A stretch of 64,000 nt of DNA from Rhodospirillales bacterium (GCA_046582495.1 JAYGEG010000160.1:81236-145235); one strand, 5' to 3'. Positions 17,684 to 27,060 are shown, counted from the stretch's first letter. Numbers and translations are program-made. The notes: a model not told the origin generated them from the letters alone.

Positions 17684-18706
17684 GTGACCAGTGAAATTGA
17701 ATTTTTAACCGACCACATTCCTGAGCCGGGCGAAGTGTATGAAATAACGCCGGGCATTCAGTGGATCAGGATGCCGCTGCCGTTTCTGCTCAACCATATC
17801 AATCTCTGGATGATCGAAGAGGAAGACGGCTGGGTCCTCATTGATACCGGCATTAATGACGAGCGAACCAAAGAGATTTGGCGCGATATCTTTGGGCGTG
17901 TACTCAATGGCAAGCCGCTCTCCAGATTGGTCTGCACCCATGCGCATCCGGATCATATTGGTCTCGGGGGATGGATCCATGAAGAATATGGTGCTGAGTT
18001 GGTTATTACCCGCGAAGAATGGGCCTTTGGCCGCATGATTTCGATGGGGGCGACCAAGGATGAAAAAACCTATTTCGACTATTTCCGCCGCATTGGGTGT
18101 GACGAAGAAAATTTAAATGATTTGGGCAGCCATATTCTTACCGCCGACGAACTTTATCATGATGTGCCGCGGCGCTATGAGCGTATGCGTGATGGCTCAA
18201 CGATCACGATTGCCGGAAAACAATGGGAAGTGATTGTCGGGCTGGGACATGCAGTGGAGCATGCGTGCCTATATTGTCAGGAGTTGGACGTGCTGATTGC
18301 CGGTGATCAAGTGTTGCCAAAAATCACGCCGACAATAATGGTGCACGCACCGGAGCCCGAGGCCGACCCGCTTAAGGATTTTCTCGACAGCAACGAGAAA
18401 CTTCGTCGCCTGCCTGATACAGTTACTGTGTTACCGAGCCATAACCGCCCGTTTACGGGGCTGCATGCGCGCCTCGACCAGTATATAGCCCATCATGACG
18501 AGCGATTGGATGTCGTGCTCAATGCCTGCGATAAGCCGCTTTCTGGCATGGAAGTCGCGGGCGTATTGTTTACGCGAGAATTGGATTTTCATGGCAAGTT
18601 TTTCGCCTCGGGTGAGGCAATGGCACATATTCGGCATCTAGAATATCAAGGCAAGCTCTCGCGAAGCATCGATACAGATGGCGTCGAGCGCTACCTGCGA
18701 GCCTAA
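17684..18706 (+). CDS. MBL-fold metallo-hydrolase
   Basis: 'THAHPDHIGLGG' (HxHxDH) is present, with later His/Asp ligand positions. GTG start. Confidence 0.75.
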   Translation: MTSEIEFLTDHIPEPGEVYEITPGIQWIRMPLPFLLNHINLWMIEEEDGWVLIDTGINDERTKEIWRDIFGRVLNGKPLSRLVCTHAHPDHIGLGGWIHEEYGAELVITREEWAFGRMISMGATKDEKTYFDYFRRIGCDEENLNDLGSHILTADELYHDVPRRYERMRDGSTITIAGKQWEVIVGLGHAVEHACLYCQELDVLIAGDQVLPKITPTIMVHAPEPEADPLKDFLDSNEKLRRLPDTVTVLPSHNRPFTGLHARLDQYIAHHDERLDVVLNACDKPLSGMEVAGVLFTRELDFHGKFFASGEAMAHIRHLEYQGKLSRSIDTDGVERYLRA

Positions 18707-19755
18707 TTTAACGACGGTGGTGCTTCAATCGGGCCGTCGGCGTTTACCCAGGCGTCGATACCGCCGCCGAGATGGCGAATATTTTTAAAGCCTGCGGATC
18801 GCAATTCCTTCAACGCCATCGCCGATCTTTCACCATACGCACAATAGAGCATGAGCTGTTGGCTCGACTGCTGGGTTAAAGCTGCGAGCAGGCCGCCCGG
18901 CTTAATATAGTCGGCAAGGCTTTTGTAGGGGACATGAACGGAGTTTGGGATGACGCCATTTTTTTCGCGTTCCGGGTCTTCGCGCAGATCTATAAAAATC
19001 GCGGCCTTATCTTCAAGCCGAGCAACCGCATCGAAGGCTGGAATGGTACGTTCAGTAATTTCCGGCTCTTCTTGCGACATTCCGATTTTTTGATTGGCCG
19101 GGACGGCGACATCCATCATTTTAGGATTGGCGAGTCCGAGATTGTCCATAATGTCGGTATATTCTTTTGCCGATACGACCTGCAATCGTGGGTTATAGGC
19201 TCTTTCCTCACCGATCGTGCTGGTACTGTCACCTTTATAATCATGACCCGGGTAAACAATCGTTTCATCCGGTAGTTTCAACAGTTTATCGAACAAAGAA
19301 TGATAGGCTTCTTGCGAACTGCCTTGCTGAAAATCTGTCCGCCCGGTTCCTCTAATTAAAAGTGTATCGCCGGTAAACACCATGCCCGGGGAATAAAAAC
19401 TGTATGAATCGTTTGTGTGGCCTGGCGTATACATAACATCCAAACAAACGCCATCTATTTCAATTTTATCGCCGTCCTCTATGCGCATAGAGACAACATC
19501 TGCGCTGCTTTGTTTGCCCATGACAGTAATACAGTTTGTCTCATCCCGAAGCGCACCCAATGCCGTGATGTGATCTGCATGGACGTGGGTATCGATCGCT
19601 TTGGCGAGTTTGAGATCAAGCTCTTCGAATAGTTTTAAATAGCGCTCCACTTTGCTGAGGACGGGATCGATGATGAGTGCTTCACTGCCTGTACCGGAAG
19701 CCAATAGATAGGTGAAGGTACAGGACTCGCTGTCAAACAATTGGCGAAAAAGCAT
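18703..19755 (-). CDS. Persulfide dioxygenase (ETHE1-like)-rhodanese fusion (Blh/PRF type)
   Basis: ETHE1-type motifs 'THVHADH', 'TPGHTNDS', 'TGDTLLIRGTGRTDF' and 'YPGHDY' are present. A C-terminal rhodanese domain carries the active-site loop 'CAYGERS'. Confidence 0.85.
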   Translation of the reverse strand: MLFRQLFDSESCTFTYLLASGTGSEALIIDPVLSKVERYLKLFEELDLKLAKAIDTHVHADHITALGALRDETNCITVMGKQSSADVVSMRIEDGDKIEIDGVCLDVMYTPGHTNDSYSFYSPGMVFTGDTLLIRGTGRTDFQQGSSQEAYHSLFDKLLKLPDETIVYPGHDYKGDSTSTIGEERAYNPRLQVVSAKEYTDIMDNLGLANPKMMDVAVPANQKIGMSQEEPEITERTIPAFDAVARLEDKAAIFIDLREDPEREKNGVIPNSVHVPYKSLADYIKPGGLLAALTQQSSQQLMLYCAYGERSAMALKELRSAGFKNIRHLGGGIDAWVNADGPIEAPPSLN

Positions 19756-19870
19756 TGATGATGTCCCCTGATGAAATTCCTCGTCTAAGTCATCTAGATA
19801 GCATCAATCAAAACAAGTTTCACCTAAATTCTACGTGAGATTGGTGTAGATAAGTGATGCTTGGCAAATA

Positions 19871-20221
19871 TCAGCAAGCGGCTTCTTCACTAACTCCGGA
19901 TTGGGTGGGTTCCATCAATATTTTGCAAATGCTATCAAGGATTCTGGAGGCGTCATTGTCTACCAATGAATAAAAAATCATTTGCGCTGAACGCCTGGTT
20001 TGAACCAACTCGTCTTTCCGCAATCTGGCAAGATGCTGCGAGAGCGCTGATTGACTGAGGCCGACAATATCTTCTAATTCGCCGACGGAATATTCTCTCT
20101 CTTTGAGGCGGCAAAGAATATAGAGACGATGCCGGTTCGCCATTGCTTTTAAAATTTTGGCGCCATCAACTGCACAAAAATCGTTGGGCATGGCGGGGCG
20201 TTCGTTTGTTGAAATATCCAT
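19871..20221 (-). CDS. ArsR-family repressor of the BigR/SqrR persulfide-sensing type
   Basis: An ArsR wHTH ('SVGELEDIVGLSQSALSQHLARLRKDELV') with Cys in 'YILCRL' (helix 2) and 'DSICKIL' (helix 5), the positions of the sensing pair in BigR/SqrR. The start is taken at ATG 20221, 15 nt after the RND stop. The track ORF extends to a TTG at 20236. Confidence 0.75.
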   Translation of the reverse strand: MDISTNERPAMPNDFCAVDGAKILKAMANRHRLYILCRLKEREYSVGELEDIVGLSQSALSQHLARLRKDELVQTRRSAQMIFYSLVDNDASRILDSICKILMEPTQSGVSEEAAC

Positions 20222-20236
20222 TTTAGTTCCAATCAA

Positions 20237-23200
20237 TTATTCAGCCGGTGTGTTCACCACATCGACCGGGGCTTTTATGTTTTTGGGTTTTAATGAGAAT
20301 GAAAATAAGCTGAGTAGAGGTGGTATAATAAGAAGTGTTAAAATTGCAGATAACGACAGTCCGCCAATAACCACTGAGCCCAATCCACTATAAAGCTCGG
20401 ACCCTGCGCCTGGGAAAAATACCAATGGCAGCATACCAAACACACTGGTCAAGGTAGACATAAAAATCGGTCGAATGCGATTACGGGTCGCCTCCATAAT
20501 TGCGTCGTTGGCGTTCATGCCTTCTTCGCGAACATGAACGAGGGTTTGGTGAACCAGCAGAATAGCATTGTTCACCACGATCCCAATAAGAATGACAAAC
20601 CCAAGTAGGGTCAGCATATCCAAGGCTTGGAAACGAATGATATTTAGGATTGTTAGTCCTGCAACACCGCCCGCGGTGGCCAAGGGAACCGAGAACATAA
20701 TGATGAAGGGGTAGATAAAACTCTCAAATAAAATTGCCATCACAAGATAAACGATGACCAAGGCAAGGAGTAAATTGAGCACCATATTGTCGAATGTTTT
20801 GGTCAGTGCATCTGCGGTGCCGCCCATGGTCATGGAAATACCAGGCGGCAATCCCTCGGCTTTTAACTTCGCCATAACGTCTTCACGCACCTGTTCCATG
20901 GCCACTTCCAAGGCAATCGCCCGCGATGGCCGAATACGAAGGGTGACGGTTCGAACGCGCTCCAAATGACGGATTTGATCAGGGCTTGACGTCACCACGA
21001 TTTTTGCCAGTGAGCTTGCCGGCAAAACCAGGCCGGAACGGGTGACAACAGGAAGATTACTTATGCTTTCTGTTCGGTTGATATATTTATCCGGACCCAT
21101 CAAAGTCAAATCCATGCGATTGCCGCCGACAGTCACTTCGGCAACGCGCAATCCATCATTAAAGGCATCAATGGTTTGGCCGAGTTCCTTGGCGGTCATG
21201 CCGTTATCGGATAATGCCCTCGGATCAGGCACCAGTCGGATTTCAGGCGACGCGTTTTGCAAGCCAGGATTAACTCGGATTTGATTGCCCTCGCTACGTG
21301 GGAACATGCGCGATGCAATCTCGTTTGCCCGTCCGGCGACTTCCAAAACGTCATTTAGGTCAGGTCCGGAAATATCGAGATTAATATTACGCCCGCCGCC
21401 GAAACCGCGGCCAAATAAGGAGGTTTGAAAGACAAAGCCGCGACTACCGGGCTCTTGGAAAATAGCACGGCGAATGATGGGTATGAGTTCTTTAGCGCGC
21501 GACGGATCAACCGCAGCGCCGGCTGCTATGGTAAAGCCACGGCGGATAACAAACCAAAAGCGGCTCATCTTAACAGGTCCGTCTGGATTTGCTTCTTCGC
21601 CGTCTGTCGACGCTAAATTTGGCTGCAAGCGCCTAAAAGTATTGGCCGCAATTTCGCGCACCGCGTCTAAATTGTACCCCGGCGGCGTGGCGATCCGAGC
21701 GATGATTAAATTTCGATTGCCTTCGGGTAGGTACTCAAGCTTGGGCAGGAAGACCCATGTCGCAAGACCGGTGATGCCACACACCAAAACAATTGTTGCC
21801 ACCGCAAGTTTTTTATTGTCAATCACCCGGCGGGCGTAGCCAATAATGCAGCGATTAAAAAAGTGCGCAAAATGATCGATGCCGGGAAGACTTAAACTGT
21901 CTGAGAAGTCGCGTATCGGTCCTGCAAGCATTCTATTAGCAAGTGCTGGTATCACCGTGATGGAAACGATCAGCGATAACAGAACTGCGACAGAAATGGC
22001 GACAGCGATGTCGCGGAACAACTGGCCAACTTCAAGGTTCATCACCAATATAGGAACAAACACCATGACGGTTGTTAGCGCAGATACAAAAACCGCTCCC
22101 CACACCTGTTGAGCACCGAGAAGAGCTGCTTCGAACGGTGTTTTGCCTTGTTGGCGTAGTCGGAAAATATTCTCGAGCACAACAATTGCCGCGTCTACAA
22201 CCATACCAACGGCAAAAGCGATGCCGGCTAATGATATTACATTGATTGAGCGACCCAAGGCAGCCATGGCGACAAAAGAGCCAATAACCGAGACCGGGAT
22301 AGCGAGCGAAATAATGGCTGTTGCTCGAAACGAACGCAGGAACAACATAAGAATAAGTGCGGCCAGCAGACCGCCGACGACAATATTTTGCTGCACCAGT
22401 CTGATTGCTGAATTGATATAAACCGTATCGTCATGGACTTGCTTGAGATGAAGCCCTGCATTTTGGAGAACACCTTCGTTTAGCTCCTTAACGGCGGCCC
22501 TTACATTCTCCATCACTTCAATGACATTGACGCCAGTATCGCGGACAACATTAGCAACAATCGATTTGTTGCCGTTATTGAGAATATAGGTCGAGGCTTT
22601 TTTGTAGCTAAATCTAACTTCTGCAACGTCCGAGACACGCACGCGGGCGATGCGACCAGTGGCTTGGTCAACTTGGGTACGGATAATTAGGTTTTCAATA
22701 CGCTCTTCATTGATCAGTTCGTTATCAGTTCGGACAATATAGCGGCGTTTTCCTTCTTCAACGACGCCAGCGGAAATGGATGCGTTGGCATTGCGCATGG
22801 CTGTTACGACGTCTGGAACCGCCAGGCCAAAGCGTGCCATTTTCTGGGGATCGACAATGATCTGGAGTTCCCGGCGTTTTCCGCCGTAGATATTGGCAAG
22901 CGCAATACCCGAAATACGTTCGAGACGGTCGGCTAGAAAATCTTGAAGGAAGGCACCGTAGGTTTGGATATCTCTTTCGTTGCCAGGCAGCTTATTAATC
23001 ACAAACCAGGCAATAGGATTGTCTTCGGAATCGCGCGTCCGGATGCGGGGTTGTTTAGCTTCATCCGGGATGCCGGAAATGTTGGTGAGCGAGTTGCCTA
23101 TCAACATTAAGGCTCTGTCCATATTGGTATCGATCGAAAACTCAAGGCGAATGTAGTTTTGGCCATCGCGACTCGTGCTTGAAATTTCCTCCAAGCCATC

Positions 23201-23422
23201 GAGGCCGGTCAGAGCTTCCTCCTGACGAGTGGTAATCTCTCTTTCTACTTCGATTGGTGATGCGCCCGGCCAGGCGGTGTGTAGAGAGACAACAGGTTTG
23301 CGTAAATCCGGCGTTAGCTGAATAGGGATCAGTTGCAATGCAACAAAGCCCATCAAAACGACCATCAAAACGAGAGATAAAACTGCGACCGGTCGTTTGA
23401 TTGCCATCTCAATTAAGGGCAT
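20237..23422 (-). CDS. RND efflux transporter permease (AcrB/HAE family)
   Basis: A 1061-aa protein with the 12-TM RND architecture and typical sequence throughout. Its start overlaps the adaptor gene stop (TAATG). Confidence 0.92.
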   Translation of the reverse strand: MPLIEMAIKRPVAVLSLVLMVVLMGFVALQLIPIQLTPDLRKPVVSLHTAWPGASPIEVEREITTRQEEALTGLDGLEEISSTSRDGQNYIRLEFSIDTNMDRALMLIGNSLTNISGIPDEAKQPRIRTRDSEDNPIAWFVINKLPGNERDIQTYGAFLQDFLADRLERISGIALANIYGGKRRELQIIVDPQKMARFGLAVPDVVTAMRNANASISAGVVEEGKRRYIVRTDNELINEERIENLIIRTQVDQATGRIARVRVSDVAEVRFSYKKASTYILNNGNKSIVANVVRDTGVNVIEVMENVRAAVKELNEGVLQNAGLHLKQVHDDTVYINSAIRLVQQNIVVGGLLAALILMLFLRSFRATAIISLAIPVSVIGSFVAMAALGRSINVISLAGIAFAVGMVVDAAIVVLENIFRLRQQGKTPFEAALLGAQQVWGAVFVSALTTVMVFVPILVMNLEVGQLFRDIAVAISVAVLLSLIVSITVIPALANRMLAGPIRDFSDSLSLPGIDHFAHFFNRCIIGYARRVIDNKKLAVATIVLVCGITGLATWVFLPKLEYLPEGNRNLIIARIATPPGYNLDAVREIAANTFRRLQPNLASTDGEEANPDGPVKMSRFWFVIRRGFTIAAGAAVDPSRAKELIPIIRRAIFQEPGSRGFVFQTSLFGRGFGGGRNINLDISGPDLNDVLEVAGRANEIASRMFPRSEGNQIRVNPGLQNASPEIRLVPDPRALSDNGMTAKELGQTIDAFNDGLRVAEVTVGGNRMDLTLMGPDKYINRTESISNLPVVTRSGLVLPASSLAKIVVTSSPDQIRHLERVRTVTLRIRPSRAIALEVAMEQVREDVMAKLKAEGLPPGISMTMGGTADALTKTFDNMVLNLLLALVIVYLVMAILFESFIYPFIIMFSVPLATAGGVAGLTILNIIRFQALDMLTLLGFVILIGIVVNNAILLVHQTLVHVREEGMNANDAIMEATRNRIRPIFMSTLTSVFGMLPLVFFPGAGSELYSGLGSVVIGGLSLSAILTLLIIPPLLSLFSFSLKPKNIKAPVDVVNTPAE

Positions 23423-24966
23423 TAGGAAGAACTCCCAATTTTATCACGGAAGAATTTTTGTTTTTCTTCTCGGCTCATACCAAAAAACTTCTGCTTTTCT
23501 TCCGGGCTCAGACTTTGAATCAGGGCGCGGCGTTTTTCGCGGGGAATGCCTCCGCCTGACCCACCCGCATTCGGTCGACCTCCAGAACGATTTGCGCTAG
23601 GTTTCCCGTCGGGTTTGCCACCGGCGCGCCTTCCTGAACGATTCACGCGAACCCGTTGGCCAGGGCGCAACAGCTCATTGCCTTTGATAACAACTTTATC
23701 ACCGGGACGCAGGCCCGATAAAATTTCGAATTTGCCACCGAAAGATTCGCCAATCACAATTGCAGCGGGCCTCACTTTACCTTTTTCAAAGACAAAGACA
23801 ATTCTACCTGACTGGCGGTTTACAATGGCGTCTTTCGACACGGCCACAACATTCCGCGTTTTACCCTGAGGCACCTCAAGAACTACGCTTTGGTTGGCAA
23901 CAAGTTTTGTCTTGGTCGCGGATAAATCAGGATACAAGCGAACGGCGCGGGTGCGTGCCAGCGGATTCTCATCGGGAATAATTGCCCGAACCGCTGCTTT
24001 AATTTTAGTGTTGTCATCGAGTTGAATGTCAATCACGCGGCCGACCGGAACGCCTGACAGCCGAATAGACGGAACATCGGCCTCGATTTCTAAAGTTTCG
24101 TCATCCAAGAGAGTGACAATTGGCGAGCCCGCGGTGATATAAGCACCAGGAGATACATGGCGTACCAATATTGCACCGGCGAAGGGCGCCCGTATCGTCG
24201 CATCTTTCAAATCGATGCGGGCAAGACCGCGTTGGGCGCGGGCACGTTTAAGCGAGGCCGCAGATTCGTCCACGGCAGAGCTTGCTTTCACCACTTCTTG
24301 TTTTTTGTCTTCAAATCGCGCCTGACTGAAGGCAGCAGATTTCCGCAATCTTTGCAGCCGTTTGAGTTCCTGATTTAACAAATCTACCTGGGCCTGCGCG
24401 GATTTCCACTTTGCGCGGGCCTGTAAGACATCGGCGCTGCGCAACTCAGCTTCTAATTTCAGGCGATCAACATTGAGTTCTGCCAGCACTTGTCCTTTTT
24501 TGACGCGGTCACCGACATCAACAAGAACAGATTTGACGCTGCCTTTTATACGGGCGGCGACGGCGCTTTTTTGACTGGCCACAAGGCGGCCGATAATAGG
24601 AAAGGTTTGAACGAGAGGCTCACTCACAACCTCACCAAGCTCTACGAGGGTTGGTGGCCGGCCACGTCGCCGTCCACCTTTGCCACCCGGTTTGCCTTTG
24701 CCGCTAGGTTTGGCCGCAGATTTGTTGCCGGATTTTTTGGAGCTTTTTGCTTTAGCCTGAAAGAATTTTTGTTTTTCCTCCCGGCTCATGCCAAAGAACT
24801 TCTGCCGTTCATCATCTGATAAACTTTGGATGATTGCGCGCCGTTGGTCCTGACTAAGCCCTTGGGCCTGGACAGTATTCAGCGTTGAAAAACTCACGAG
24901 CGTTAAGAGAAAAAAGCTCATTATACCAAAGGATAACTCTCTGGAATTGCTCATATTAAATTTCAT
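23422..24966 (-). CDS. RND periplasmic adaptor (MFP/HlyD family) with duplicated terminal motif and basic Gly/Lys-rich linkers
   Basis: It has a signal peptide and a lipoyl/hairpin/beta-barrel core ('VKKGQVLAELN', coiled-coil 'LEAELRSA...', 'IRAPFAGAI'). The motif 'QSLSxxExQKFFGMSREEKQKFF' appears at aa 41-69 and again at aa 478-506. Confidence 0.85.
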   Translation of the reverse strand: MKFNMSNSRELSFGIMSFFLLTLVSFSTLNTVQAQGLSQDQRRAIIQSLSDDERQKFFGMSREEKQKFFQAKAKSSKKSGNKSAAKPSGKGKPGGKGGRRRGRPPTLVELGEVVSEPLVQTFPIIGRLVASQKSAVAARIKGSVKSVLVDVGDRVKKGQVLAELNVDRLKLEAELRSADVLQARAKWKSAQAQVDLLNQELKRLQRLRKSAAFSQARFEDKKQEVVKASSAVDESAASLKRARAQRGLARIDLKDATIRAPFAGAILVRHVSPGAYITAGSPIVTLLDDETLEIEADVPSIRLSGVPVGRVIDIQLDDNTKIKAAVRAIIPDENPLARTRAVRLYPDLSATKTKLVANQSVVLEVPQGKTRNVVAVSKDAIVNRQSGRIVFVFEKGKVRPAAIVIGESFGGKFEILSGLRPGDKVVIKGNELLRPGQRVRVNRSGRRAGGKPDGKPSANRSGGRPNAGGSGGGIPREKRRALIQSLSPEEKQKFFGMSREEKQKFFRDKIGSSS

Positions 24967-25013
24967 TTTTACTAAGACTCCCGGTACACTCAGGAATATA
25001 ATTTGTGGCGATT

Positions 25014-25038
25014 TTATACCCCAGCCAATGGGGTATAA
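25014..25038. promoter_or_regulatory. Perfect 10-bp inverted repeat (ttatacccca-N5-tggggtataa) upstream of the RND operon
   Basis: The arms lie at 25014-25023 and 25029-25038, 48-72 nt upstream of the adaptor ATG (24966). It is nested inside a second inverted repeat: tcaggaatataatt at 24990-25003 and aattatatttcctga at 25073-25087. Confidence 0.45.
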
Positions 25039-25233
25039 CGGATCACAAACTGAATTCCGTCGCTCTTTTTGAAATTATATTTCCTGAATGTCGCTTTTAC
25101 TTTATATACCCGCACGATTTTTTATTTTTTTGTTATAAAAACACCTAAATCTATAGGGTTAATTTAAATAATTATTTCACAATCAGCAATCTACATTACC
25201 ACAAAAAATTGTAACATTTGATTGATCTTCGGT

Positions 25234-26052
25234 TCACAGAGTGAGTTCTGATGTTTTAGCATCTTTGACTTTAAGTTCGATTTTACGGGCTGTAGATTTT
25301 AGAGTGGCCAAATGGCGTTCAGCTATTTCCTCCGGCGTAGACGCGGACGAGATAAATGTCACGGCAAGCGTCGCTGTGACGCGGCTACCATTCATTATTG
25401 GGATCGCAATGCTTGACGTTTTCCGGTGGCTGTGAAATCCGTCGTCACGCTTGCCATAACCGTGTTTGCGGGTCCAATTAAGCATGCGCTGAACGTAGTC
25501 AGAATCCTGTGCTAGTTTGTCAAATTTGTCTTTTGAGCGCCGCAAGCTTTCCAGAATTTCCAAGCATTCTGCCTCGGGGCAAAAGCTTAAATAGGCGCGG
25601 CCGACAGATGTAACCAGCATTGGAAGGCGCTCACCAACAGACACCCAATCAATCGTAAACGGGCTATAAGCTCTCGTGGTTTCGCGGATATACATAGCGT
25701 CATTTAAAAACGTGATGAGGTCAACCGGCCAGAGAATTTCTTCGACCGCTTCTTGCATGATCGGCGCGGCGATGCTTTGAACCCAGTCTTCCTCGCCAAA
25801 GCCATCGCTTAGGCGCCGCACCAGATGGGTTAAATAATAACGATCATCGGATTCTTGTTGGCGTATATAGCCGAAAGATTCCAGAGCATTGAGCAAACGA
25901 TAGATGGCGGGGCGGGAAAACCCTGTCGTTGCGGCAAGATCCGTGGCCTTCGCGCCTTTAAGATGATTGAGCGTTTCAATGAGCACCAGGAGACGCTCAG
26001 CGCTTTTCACACCTTTATATCTCTGTATTGTATTTTTTTGAGTTTTGGCCAA
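25234..26052 (-). CDS. IclR-family transcriptional regulator
   Basis: A wHTH ('SAERLLVLIETLNHLKGAKATDLAATTGFSRPAIYRLLNAL') plus an IclR C-terminal domain. It is divergent from the deacetylase gene. Confidence 0.8.
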   Translation of the reverse strand: MAKTQKNTIQRYKGVKSAERLLVLIETLNHLKGAKATDLAATTGFSRPAIYRLLNALESFGYIRQQESDDRYYLTHLVRRLSDGFGEEDWVQSIAAPIMQEAVEEILWPVDLITFLNDAMYIRETTRAYSPFTIDWVSVGERLPMLVTSVGRAYLSFCPEAECLEILESLRRSKDKFDKLAQDSDYVQRMLNWTRKHGYGKRDDGFHSHRKTSSIAIPIMNGSRVTATLAVTFISSASTPEEIAERHLATLKSTARKIELKVKDAKTSELTL

Positions 26053-26136: not shown

Positions 26137-27060
26137 GTGGCGACGCGTTTTTACACTCATCCTGTTTGTATCACCCATGAGCCGGGGCCTCACCATCCGG
26201 AATCACCTGATCGGTTGAGATCGGTAATTTCTGCTTTGTCTGATCCCGCCTTTGAAGCATTAGAGCGCAAGGAAGCACCCGAAACGACGGTGGATACAAT
26301 CGCTTTGGTCCATGACGGGAACTTTGTCGAAAGAATATTAAAGTCTGTCCCGGAAAGCGGTTATGCGCAACTTGATCCAGATACCATTCTGTCGCCGGGT
26401 TCTGGTGAAGCGACTTTGCGTGCTGTCGGTGGGATTTGCCAGGCAGTCGGCGACGTGGTTAACGGCGAAGCGGATAACGCTTTTTGTGCCATGCGTCCGC
26501 CGGGCCACCACGCCGAGAGCTCTCGGGCGATGGGATTTTGCGTCTTCAACAGTGTTGCCATTGCCGCCCGTTATGCTCAAAAGCAGTTCGGCATCGATAA
26601 AGTGGCGGTGATTGATTTTGATGTTCATCATGGTAATGGCACTCAGCATATGTTCGAAAATGATGCGAGCCTGTTCTATGGCTCAAGTCATCAGTTTCCC
26701 GCCTATCCCGGAACGGGTGCCGCCTCGGAAACCGGTGTTGGCAATATCGCCAACGTCCCGCTTAGCCCGGGCAGTGGCTCCGATTTATTTCGGGCAGCCT
26801 ATACCGATGTGATATTTCCAGAGCTCCGAGCGTTTAACCCAGACTTGCTGCTGATCTCTGCCGGCTTTGATGCTCATATTCAAGACCCGCTTTGCCAACT
26901 CAATGTCACCACCGATGATTTCGCCTGGATCAGCGACGAGCTTATGGATATCGCCGACGAATGCTGCGATGGACGTCTGGTTTCGACGCTGGAAGGCGGC
27001 TACGATTTGGAAGCCTTGGCCGAGAGCGCAGCGGTCCATGTCCAAGCGCTGATGGGGTGA
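26137..27060 (+). CDS. Histone deacetylase-family amidohydrolase (HDAC/AcuC/acetylpolyamine amidohydrolase-like)
   Basis: 'RPPGHHA', 'DFDVHHGNGTQ' and 'EGGY' motifs are present. GTG start with 'aagggaga' upstream. Confidence 0.85.
   Translation: MATRFYTHPVCITHEPGPHHPESPDRLRSVISALSDPAFEALERKEAPETTVDTIALVHDGNFVERILKSVPESGYAQLDPDTILSPGSGEATLRAVGGICQAVGDVVNGEADNAFCAMRPPGHHAESSRAMGFCVFNSVAIAARYAQKQFGIDKVAVIDFDVHHGNGTQHMFENDASLFYGSSHQFPAYPGTGAASETGVGNIANVPLSPGSGSDLFRAAYTDVIFPELRAFNPDLLLISAGFDAHIQDPLCQLNVTTDDFAWISDELMDIADECCDGRLVSTLEGGYDLEALAESAAVHVQALMG

Follow-up and report, generated by a model that had tools for sequence, protein, structure and literature searches.

An ArsR-family regulator gene and a persulfide dioxygenase-rhodanese gene behind an RND efflux operon in a marine Rhodospirillales-like bacterium

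Introduction

Is an efflux pump tied to sulfur metabolism when its operon runs directly into a gene for a putative persulfide sensor? The question is raised by a locus in a 64,000-nt stretch of DNA from a Rhodospirillales bacterium (GCA_046582495.1, JAYGEG010000160.1:81236-145235), referred to here as the window, whose lineage is that of an uncultured marine Rhodospirillales-like alphaproteobacterium. Genes for the adaptor and the permease of a resistance-nodulation-division (RND) pump are followed in the window by a gene for an ArsR-family regulator and a gene for a persulfide dioxygenase-rhodanese fusion protein (PRF). An initial annotation of this DNA took the regulator for a BigR/SqrR-type persulfide sensor and proposed that efflux is tied to sulfide or persulfide stress. 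Here we report that the gene arrangement is real and not a chance adjacency, that the regulator is likely encoded by the distal cistron of the pump transcript, and that its likely regulatory target is PRF and not the pump.

Results

Junction of the pump and regulator genes

All positions are counted over the whole 64,000-nt stretch, and the pump, ArsR, PRF, and IclR genes lie on the minus strand (Table 1). The gene order on this strand is IclR, a 267-nt spacer, the adaptor, the RND permease, a 15-nt spacer, ArsR, a 115-nt spacer, and PRF. The adaptor and RND genes overlap by 1 nt (TAATG, in the context cctAATGccc). The gap behind the RND stop codon (TAA, 20237–20239) ends at the ATG of the ArsR gene (20219–20221), and the gap behind the ArsR stop codon (19871–19873) ends at the ATG of PRF (19753–19755). 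The ArsR frame is open further upstream to a TTG (20234–20236) that abuts the RND stop codon, and a TTG in this position was found in five of the seven related lineages read. The coordinates, the TAATG overlap, both spacers, and the common strand given in the initial annotation were all read back from the sequence. Its gene identities were confirmed by matches to ACR_tran, TIGR01730, and HTH_5, and by a full-length alignment of PRF with 5ve3.

The RND-ArsR spacer, 14–16 nt long and containing TTGATWGGA, is kept in at least seven lineages, between which the synonymous sites are saturated (third-position identity of approximately 0.49). In distant orthologs, the ArsR gene has its own upstream region of 150–300 nt with AT-rich palindromes. 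A terminator scan detected no terminator-like site between RND, ArsR, and PRF, and a consensus promoter scan of the locus gave promoter-like matches that were not above the expectation from shuffled sequences. A conserved promoter within the 3′ end of the RND gene was considered and rejected, as synonymous conservation is not elevated there and the promoter scan was below shuffled expectation. The third-position identity at conserved residues in the last 40 RND codons was 0.54–0.60 in comparisons with L011, L014, and L023 (loci are designated by L and a number), compared with 0.48–0.49 overall, and other stretches of the RND gene reached 0.63–0.68.

Because the ArsR upstream region has shrunk to 14–16 nt, and because PRF lies 5–36 nt behind RND in relatives lacking ArsR, the regulator gene is likely the distal cistron of the pump transcript, without a promoter region of its own. 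Two origins had been proposed for its transcript. The first, as the last gene of the RND operon, is the likely one, given the conserved spacer and the lack of a terminator; the second, from a promoter buried in the RND coding sequence, left no conserved sign.

A conserved palindrome upstream of PRF

The ArsR-PRF spacer has a single conserved block, a 21-bp palindrome of the form TTCAC-N11-GTGAA, which encloses a − 10-like hexamer (TAGAAT, similar to TATAAT). The palindrome was present in 8 of 10 lineages carrying both ArsR and PRF, was kept despite saturated synonymous sites, and was not found at any PRF locus lacking ArsR. When the window was scanned with a matrix of the palindrome, this was the single high-scoring site (29.8 bits, compared with 10.8 bits for the next best), and the other near-matches in the window fell inside coding sequences. 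The regions upstream of the adaptor and of IclR and the 3′ end of the RND gene gave only background scores. Upstream of the adaptor, the best scores in the window and its closest relatives were − 2.6 to 7.3 bits, compared with 30–34 bits for the palindrome at PRF.

A second copy of the palindrome at the pump promoter was sought by pattern and matrix scans in the window, L011, L014, and L023, and none was detected. Inspection by eye of the ArsR-upstream and adaptor-upstream regions of distant loci also revealed no operator common to both. The palindrome is the presumed operator through which the ArsR protein would act on the PRF promoter. Since it occurs only at PRF and the regions upstream of the pump score at background, the likely target of regulation is PRF, not the pump. 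The proposed tie between efflux and sulfide or persulfide stress was thus left unsupported, the conserved operator-like palindrome being at PRF only. The cysteine pair of the regulator is neither canonical nor conserved among orthologs with identical synteny (see below).

A box-like sequence, TTTGACCGGAAATTTCAGGTAAA on the strand of the gene for a histone deacetylase (HDAC)-family protein, is located just upstream of the HDAC start in three loci without IclR (L022:8196–8220, L093:8187–8211, and L037 at about 1045–1070). We retained it as no more than a lead, as its score of 13 bits in L022 is within the noise of box-less loci and the sequence runs into the ribosome-binding region of HDAC. At most, it hints weakly at a further action of the regulator in the divergent region between HDAC and the adaptor. 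At L102:553–690, an 11-nt tandem duplication, AGAGAATTTAC, was observed inside the PRF palindrome; the regulator of L102 is without the helix-5 Cys.

Distribution of the gene arrangement

At least 20 marine metagenome contigs carry the exact sequence of the regulator, all in an identical gene order, and homologs of 71% and 68% identity showed the same gene order and the same 15-nt spacer. We scanned the RND protein against one genome per species, which yielded 80 ortholog loci, and mapped synteny by tblastn. All loci were from Alphaproteobacteria, mostly metagenome-assembled genomes of uncultured Rhodospirillales or Rhodospirillaceae; cultured carriers include Kiloniella and Curvivirga.

An ArsR gene was located downstream of RND on the same strand in 28 of the 66 loci with at least 2 kb of downstream sequence, and the RND-regulator adjacency is not unique to this genome, a finding that would have counted against the initial annotation. 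Among loci flanked by 8 kb or more in each direction, this arrangement was observed in 22 of 33 loci in which the pump lies next to dxs-ispA-xseB-HDAC and in 0 of 12 loci in other contexts. In the HDAC context, 26 of 39 loci carried at least one gene of TusA, ArsR, and PRF within 3.5 kb downstream of RND; in other contexts, none of 16 loci did.

PRF directly follows RND, with no regulator gene between them, in L028 (5 nt), L032 (21 nt), L025 (30 nt), and L036 (105 nt). In L104, PRF starts 36 nt after RND, a TetR gene is located upstream, and a TauE sulfite-exporter gene is 5 kb away (L104:13412–14155). The order in L106 is RND, TusA on the opposite strand, and PRF. As the RND proteins of L104 and L106 are only 59% identical to that of the window, the link between RND and PRF is not confined to the nearest clade, and we abandoned the view of PRF as a recently inserted gene restricted to that clade. 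PRF was also found in an unrelated context (L105).

Seven loci (L038, L039, L040, L045, L049, L054, and L080) contain a gene for a TusA-like sulfur carrier that is oriented divergently to the RND-linked ArsR gene. In these loci, where TusA stands between RND and ArsR, the helix-5 Cys of the regulator is lost in L040, L045, L049, L054, and L080, and the canonical pair is present in L038 and L039. Two further variants of the locus were observed. In L017 (7254–9721), L018, and L019, the locus is decayed: RND is cut to a C-terminal fragment of 178 aa, ArsR is intact with a 160-nt upstream region, and an insertion sequence element (HTH_Tnp_1 and rve) occupies the place of PRF. In Curvivirga (L066:7734–13156 and L067), HDAC is directly upstream of adaptor-RND on the same strand, and the HDAC and adaptor reading frames overlap, which suggests an HDAC-adaptor-RND-ArsR unit instead of the usual divergent form.

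Family and fold of the regulator

We compared the regulator with proteins of solved structure by phmmer. The best matches were HlyU (4e-20), NolR (1e-17), BigR (2e-15), and SqrR (2e-15), with YgaV also near; HlyU proteins of both Vibrio cholerae and V. vulnificus were among the nearest relatives. Foldseek searches with an AlphaFold2 model (pLDDT 82) gave HlyU, NolR, SqrR, BigR, and YgaV as top matches, the ranking being the same as by sequence. The model contains helices at residues 13–28, 30–41, 46–53, 57–69, and 90–103 and strands at residues 73–78 and 81–86, and thus has the winged-helix ArsR fold (α1-α2-α3-α4-β1-β2-α5).

The regulator contains four cysteines: Cys16, Cys37 in helix 2 (YILCRL), Cys99 in helix 5 (DSICKIL), and Cys116 at the C-terminus. 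Cys37 (RLYILCRL) is aligned with Cys38 of HlyU (RLQILCML) and Cys42 of BigR (RLMLVCTL), and so occupies the helix-2 sensing position. Of the sensing pair claimed in the initial annotation, Cys37 was therefore upheld; Cys99 is present but lies four residues before the canonical position. The helix-2 Cys was found in 29 of the 31 RND-linked ArsR orthologs and the fully canonical HlyU-type pair in 13, the canonical helix-5 Cys being a feature of these 13 more distant orthologs. A helix-5 Cys one turn early was observed in 3 of the 31, in addition to the window protein. Dithiol sensing is, judging from these sequences, not a conserved property of the regulator orthogroup, because homologs lacking the Cys pair share the same gene arrangement. 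A metal-sensor reading was rejected from the sequence, as there is neither a CXC in helix 3 nor a His/Asp-rich site in helix 5.

PRF and the convergent gene

PRF was matched to 4ysb (2e-72), to the PRF of Burkholderia phytofirmans (BpPRF; 5ve3, 3e-64 over residues 1–341), and, in its N-terminal half, to human ETHE1 (4chl, 2e-60). Its motifs are intact (HxHxDH as THVHADH, TPGHT, FTGD, and the rhodanese loop CAYGERS), and Pfam Lactamase_B and Rhodanese domains were detected. Thus, an ETHE1-type metallo-β-lactamase (MBL) domain, a rhodanese with catalytic Cys, and collinearity identify a dioxygenase-rhodanese fusion of the BpPRF type. On the NCBIfam Blh model NF040641, PRF gave a partial match of 88.4 bits, below the cut-off of 625, and by this comparison the last gene of the locus is not Blh. 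The regulator scored 82.5 bits on the BigR equivalog model NF040642, for which the cut-off is 155. As both proteins score under the respective cut-offs, "BigR" and "blh" are loose labels here.

The stop codons of PRF and the convergent MBL-fold gene overlap by 4 nt (18703–18706), and the overlap is kept in relatives. The MBL-fold protein resembles uncharacterised Burkholderia structures (5i0p, 1e-78). Because its gene is co-present with ArsR or PRF at this locus even in distant genomes, it may share a function with them.

The pump and its upstream region

The ACR_tran match spans residues 4–1040 of the permease, which is thus a full-length AcrB-family protein with 12 transmembrane segments, adjoined by its adaptor. 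On NCBIfam RND_permease_2 it scored 628 bits (cut-off 1250), and it missed every curated equivalog cut-off. The closest solved structures are MdtB and CmeB (1e-98 to 1e-87). Among the genes called up to 10 kb to each side, no outer membrane factor family was detected, and by this gene content the pump must borrow an outer membrane factor encoded elsewhere or operate without one.

The N- and C-terminal extensions of the adaptor carry a repeat, RRA(I/L)IQSLSxEE(R/K)QKFFGMSREEKQKFF, together with Gly/Arg/Pro-rich linkers. At the DNA level, the copies are located at 23440–23502 and 24751–24813. The repeat motif resembles the LTXXQ motif of CpxP/Spy. The window carries two copies; L011 and L014 have three, L021 has a single one, and distant orthologs lack the motif. 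Besides a weak HMG_box match, no Pfam family fitted the extensions.

HDAC, a conserved neighbour, is divergent from the pump operon, and in the window the IclR gene stands between HDAC and the adaptor. The IclR gene, for which gene callers take a 258-aa start, is found only in the window and in L011, L014, L020, and L023, its closest relatives. The classical position of a pump regulator is filled by IclR in the window and by TetR in L104 and in L040-type loci, and IclR is a candidate pump regulator on this positional basis.

Two adjacent hairpins were observed in the IclR-adaptor spacer, only in IclR-bearing relatives; across five lineages, their stems are invariant and the loop is 4 to 6 nt. 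The region has an RNA fold z-score of − 4.05, and no known RNA family in Rfam was matched there. In the window, a further 15-bp inverted repeat (25072–25088 and 24990–25004) encloses both hairpins.

Table 1 Features of the locus in the window.
Feature	Position	Strand	Evidence or remark
HDAC-family amidohydrolase	26137–27060	+	Pfam Hist_deacetyl 2e-92; upstream of adaptor in most syntenic loci
IclR-family regulator gene	25234–26052	−	Pfam IclR_C and HTH_IclR; NCBIfam PRK09834-type, 217 bits, below cut-off
Two adjacent hairpins, IclR-adaptor spacer	25015–25061	−	GACGGAAT...ATCCGTT and TATACCCCA-loop-TGGGGTATA; stems invariant across five lineages
RND periplasmic adaptor (membrane fusion protein), 514 aa	23422–24966	−	TIGR01730 2e-61
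RND inner-membrane permease, 1061 aa, HAE1-like	20237–23422	−	ACR_tran 5e-203
RND-ArsR spacer, 15 nt, TTGATTGGAACTAAA	20222–20236	−	GGA Shine-Dalgarno-like core; TTG in ArsR frame
ArsR-family regulator, HlyU/NolR/SqrR/BigR group, 116 aa	19871–20221	−	PDB phmmer, AlphaFold2 model, HTH_5
21-bp palindrome, CTCACGTAGAATTTAGGTGAA	19819–19839	strandless	Only conserved block of ArsR-PRF spacer; putative operator
PRF, ETHE1-type persulfide dioxygenase with C-terminal rhodanese, 350 aa	18703–19755	−	PDB matches, motifs
Convergent MBL-fold hydrolase	17684–18706	+	Pfam Lactamase_B and B_lactamase-like_C; PDB 5i0p 1e-78 (uncharacterised)

Discussion

Proposed explanation

In our best explanation, the locus would be an old alphaproteobacterial block of the Rhodospirillales type, composed of dxs-ispA-xseB-HDAC, adaptor-RND, a variable "sulfur islet", and the convergent MBL-fold gene. 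The islet would consist of an HlyU/SqrR-type ArsR gene with or without TusA and PRF. In this lineage, the upstream region of the ArsR gene would have been lost, which leaves the gene as the final cistron behind adaptor-RND on the same transcript, translated from the ATG 15 nt past the RND stop codon or from the abutting TTG. PRF would keep its own promoter, and the palindrome around the − 10-like hexamer would most likely be bound by an ArsR dimer acting as a repressor, a role suggested by the architecture and the co-occurrence of the two. By homology, sulfane sulfur in the form of glutathione persulfide or inorganic persulfide would act on Cys37 and on either Cys99 or a different Cys, a step that is weakened by the shifted Cys. 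The modification would release ArsR from DNA, and PRF would then oxidise persulfide to sulfite or thiosulfate. Transcription of the pump would set the dose of the repressor, and read-through would add PRF message. Because the pump promoter shows no copy of the palindrome, the coupling is predicted to be one-way, with no dependence of pump expression on sulfur expected. For this explanation as a whole, with the islet behind the pump, the regulator as the last pump cistron, repression of PRF, and one-way coupling, we consider the chances to be evenly balanced.

Several observations weigh against it. L021 and L103 have ArsR and are without the palindrome, and the − 35 region of the promoter proposed for PRF is poor. 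The RND-ArsR adjacency follows one syntenic block, and descent alone could account for it. In helix 5, the residue aligned with C104 of HlyU, C108 of BigR, and C107 of SqrR is Met103; the canonical Cys is thus absent, and Cys99 is placed one helical turn early, on the N-terminal side of the sensing position. The Cys37/Cys99-type pair is present in only 10 of the 17 closest database homologs: P0003, P0015, P0017, and P0021 are without both Cys, and P0004, P0007, and P0013 are without the helix-5 Cys. P0003 and P0021 nevertheless retain the RND-(14–15 nt)-ArsR-PRF arrangement, and P0003 retains the palindrome as well. The contig of P0007, which starts just upstream of ArsR, shows the RND stop codon, a 16-nt spacer, ArsR, and PRF. 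NolR, a close relative of the regulator, is not known to be a thiol sensor. Finally, both co-transcription and repression are deduced from sequence.

Alternative explanations

The alternative that fares best is that common descent alone keeps the genes together. Pump and sulfur genes would have no functional relation and would merely occupy the same conserved stretch of chromosome, the short spacers would reflect the streamlining of marine genomes, and ArsR would be transcribed from a weak, non-conserved promoter in the 3′ end of RND. ArsR is indeed confined to loci with the pump in the dxs-ispA-xseB-HDAC block, where plainly unrelated genes are found too, and ArsR or the entire islet has been lost in about a third of the syntenic loci; the occurrence of PRF in the unrelated context of L105 points in the same direction. 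A promoter-like match of 9/12 is located at 20416–20387, with its − 10 hexamer approximately 165 nt upstream of the ArsR start. However, the spacings of 5–36 nt between RND and PRF and of 14–16 nt between RND and ArsR are too short for promoters and recur at approximately 59–90% RND identity, while promoter-like matches are not above those in shuffled sequences and synonymous conservation of the RND 3′ end is not elevated. RND genes also adjoin SqrR-type regulators in several other orders (PMC12423496), which is hard to derive from one syntenic block. We consider descent alone unlikely, but still a serious contender.

A second alternative accepts the regulation of PRF and questions its signal. 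The regulator would not be a persulfide sensor here but a NolR-like repressor, constitutive or responsive to another ligand, that sets the basal level of PRF, and its cysteines would be incidental. The displacement of the helix-5 Cys by four residues is consistent with this, as are the lack of the pair in 7 of the 17 close orthologs, some with identical synteny, the score under the BigR equivalog cut-off, and the rank of NolR as second-best structural relative. On the other hand, a helix-2 Cys in 29 of the 31 RND-linked orthologs and a canonical pair in 13 indicate that the ancestor was probably a dithiol sensor, and the genes that flank the regulator, PRF and TusA, handle sulfane sulfur. In addition, helix positions i-4 and i would share one face, so that a Cys one turn early would still point to the same side. 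This alternative, too, appears unlikely to us.

That ArsR also controls the adaptor-RND promoter, so that sulfane sulfur would induce efflux of polysulfide or organosulfur species, is improbable: RND pumps have been proposed as targets of SqrR-type regulators from gene neighbourhoods alone (Li et al. 2025, PMC12423496), and both the box-like sequence upstream of HDAC and the RND-PRF operon fusion in ArsR-less relatives would fit, but no site above background was found upstream of the adaptor in the window or its closest relatives, the HDAC-upstream box is within noise, and IclR or TetR occupies the classical position of a pump regulator.

Implications

One further idea joins the two systems more closely. 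Adaptor-RND and PRF may form a single zero-valent-sulfur unit, in which the pump would clear sulfane sulfur (S8, polysulfides, or organic polysulfanes) dissolved in the membrane or periplasm, PRF would oxidise the cytoplasmic share, and the embedded regulator, with its relocated sensing Cys, would balance both. We regard this as a speculative proposal with little chance of being correct. If true, no RND system would have been assigned to the export of sulfane sulfur before this one, and the SqrR family would gain a new thiol-pair geometry.

The frequent adjacency of SqrR-type regulators and RND genes is a pattern that has been noticed, and what is at stake in it is the fate of sulfane sulfur at the cell envelope. 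In this lineage and in the ArsR-less relatives, where the pump operon has PRF as its third cistron, the genetic coupling is the tightest seen so far, which makes them a clean place to probe whether an RND pump acts on sulfur species. The regulator variants with a canonical pair, a shifted pair, or none, under identical gene order, are a natural experiment on Cys geometry. If the link is one of synteny only, the locus is ordinary.

Comparison with known systems

In the BigR-Blh operon of Xylella and Agrobacterium, an ArsR repressor is encoded beside a bifunctional sulfurtransferase/persulfide dioxygenase, and its operator lies over the promoter. The locus in the window resembles this operon in that the ArsR gene adjoins a gene for a sulfurtransferase/persulfide dioxygenase. 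It differs in that Blh is a different fusion, with the rhodanese preceding the dioxygenase, and in that the transporters of BigR-Blh systems are of the PmpAB/TauE type and not RND. The Agrobacterium order is rhodanese-dioxygenase fusion, bigR, and pmpBA (PMC12423496), and the statement in the initial annotation that BigR normally stands first in its operon was therefore inexact.

BpPRF (5ve3–5ve5) has the same two-domain architecture as PRF of the window and is collinear with it over residues 1–341, whereas the window protein has a diverged sequence (phmmer 3e-64) and lies behind an RND operon.

HlyU, BigR, and SqrR fall in one cluster that is defined by helix-2 and helix-5 Cys forming a tetrasulfide, and the neighbours reported for this cluster comprise sulfurtransferases and transporters of inorganic sulfur (Pis Diez et al. 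2023, PMC10509353). V. cholerae HlyU (4k2e/4ooi) is the best match of the regulator in both sequence and fold (4e-20; TM-score 0.88 on the target), with the helix-2 Cys aligned. It is a stand-alone activator and anti-silencer of toxin genes, and its second Cys, 104, corresponds to Met103 in the window. No RND or PRF neighbourhood is described for HlyU in that study, in the text of which "RND" does not occur (PMC10509353).

Regulators of the MexR/MarR type tie sulfane sulfur to the expression of RND pumps (PMC11211675, PMC8614764). These belong to the MarR family and control the pump promoter, whereas no operator was detectable at the pump promoter in the window.

The closest parallel was drawn by Li et al. 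(2025, Mol Microbiol, PMC12423496, section 2.1, Fig. S2, and Table S1), who list RND pumps among the likely targets of two-Cys SqrR/sHdrR-type regulators. In Table S1 of that paper, RND genes stand beside the regulator for SqrR of R. capsulatus itself, and in Hyphomicrobium denitrificans 1NES1, Hyphomicrobium sp. CS1BSMeth3, Rhodomicrobium, Rhodopila globiformis (RND and rhodanese), Rhodoplanes elegans (RND and sulfurtransferase), R. palustris, Erythrobacter, and Halorhodospira. These systems share with the window an ArsR regulator of the same subfamily that adjoins RND genes, at times with a sulfurtransferase, in Alphaproteobacteria, and the vicinity by which they were recognised is also seen in the window, where the spacer is 15 nt. 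The RND link of Li et al. is drawn from the neighbourhood table alone and is compared here at the level of the RND class, not of an orthogroup.

The neighbourhood of RND genes and SqrR-type regulators is thus already on record as an observation on gene positions (Li et al. 2025, PMC12423496), and the linkage, which the initial annotation did not know to be described, had been noted before. The window departs from the recorded systems in that the regulator gene is fused into the pump operon, a dioxygenase-rhodanese fusion follows, and the helix-5 Cys is shifted. New here are the operon-level fusion, in which the regulator is 15 nt away and PRF, in relatives, 5–36 nt, the pairing with an enzyme of the BpPRF type, and the displaced, non-conserved helix-5 Cys.

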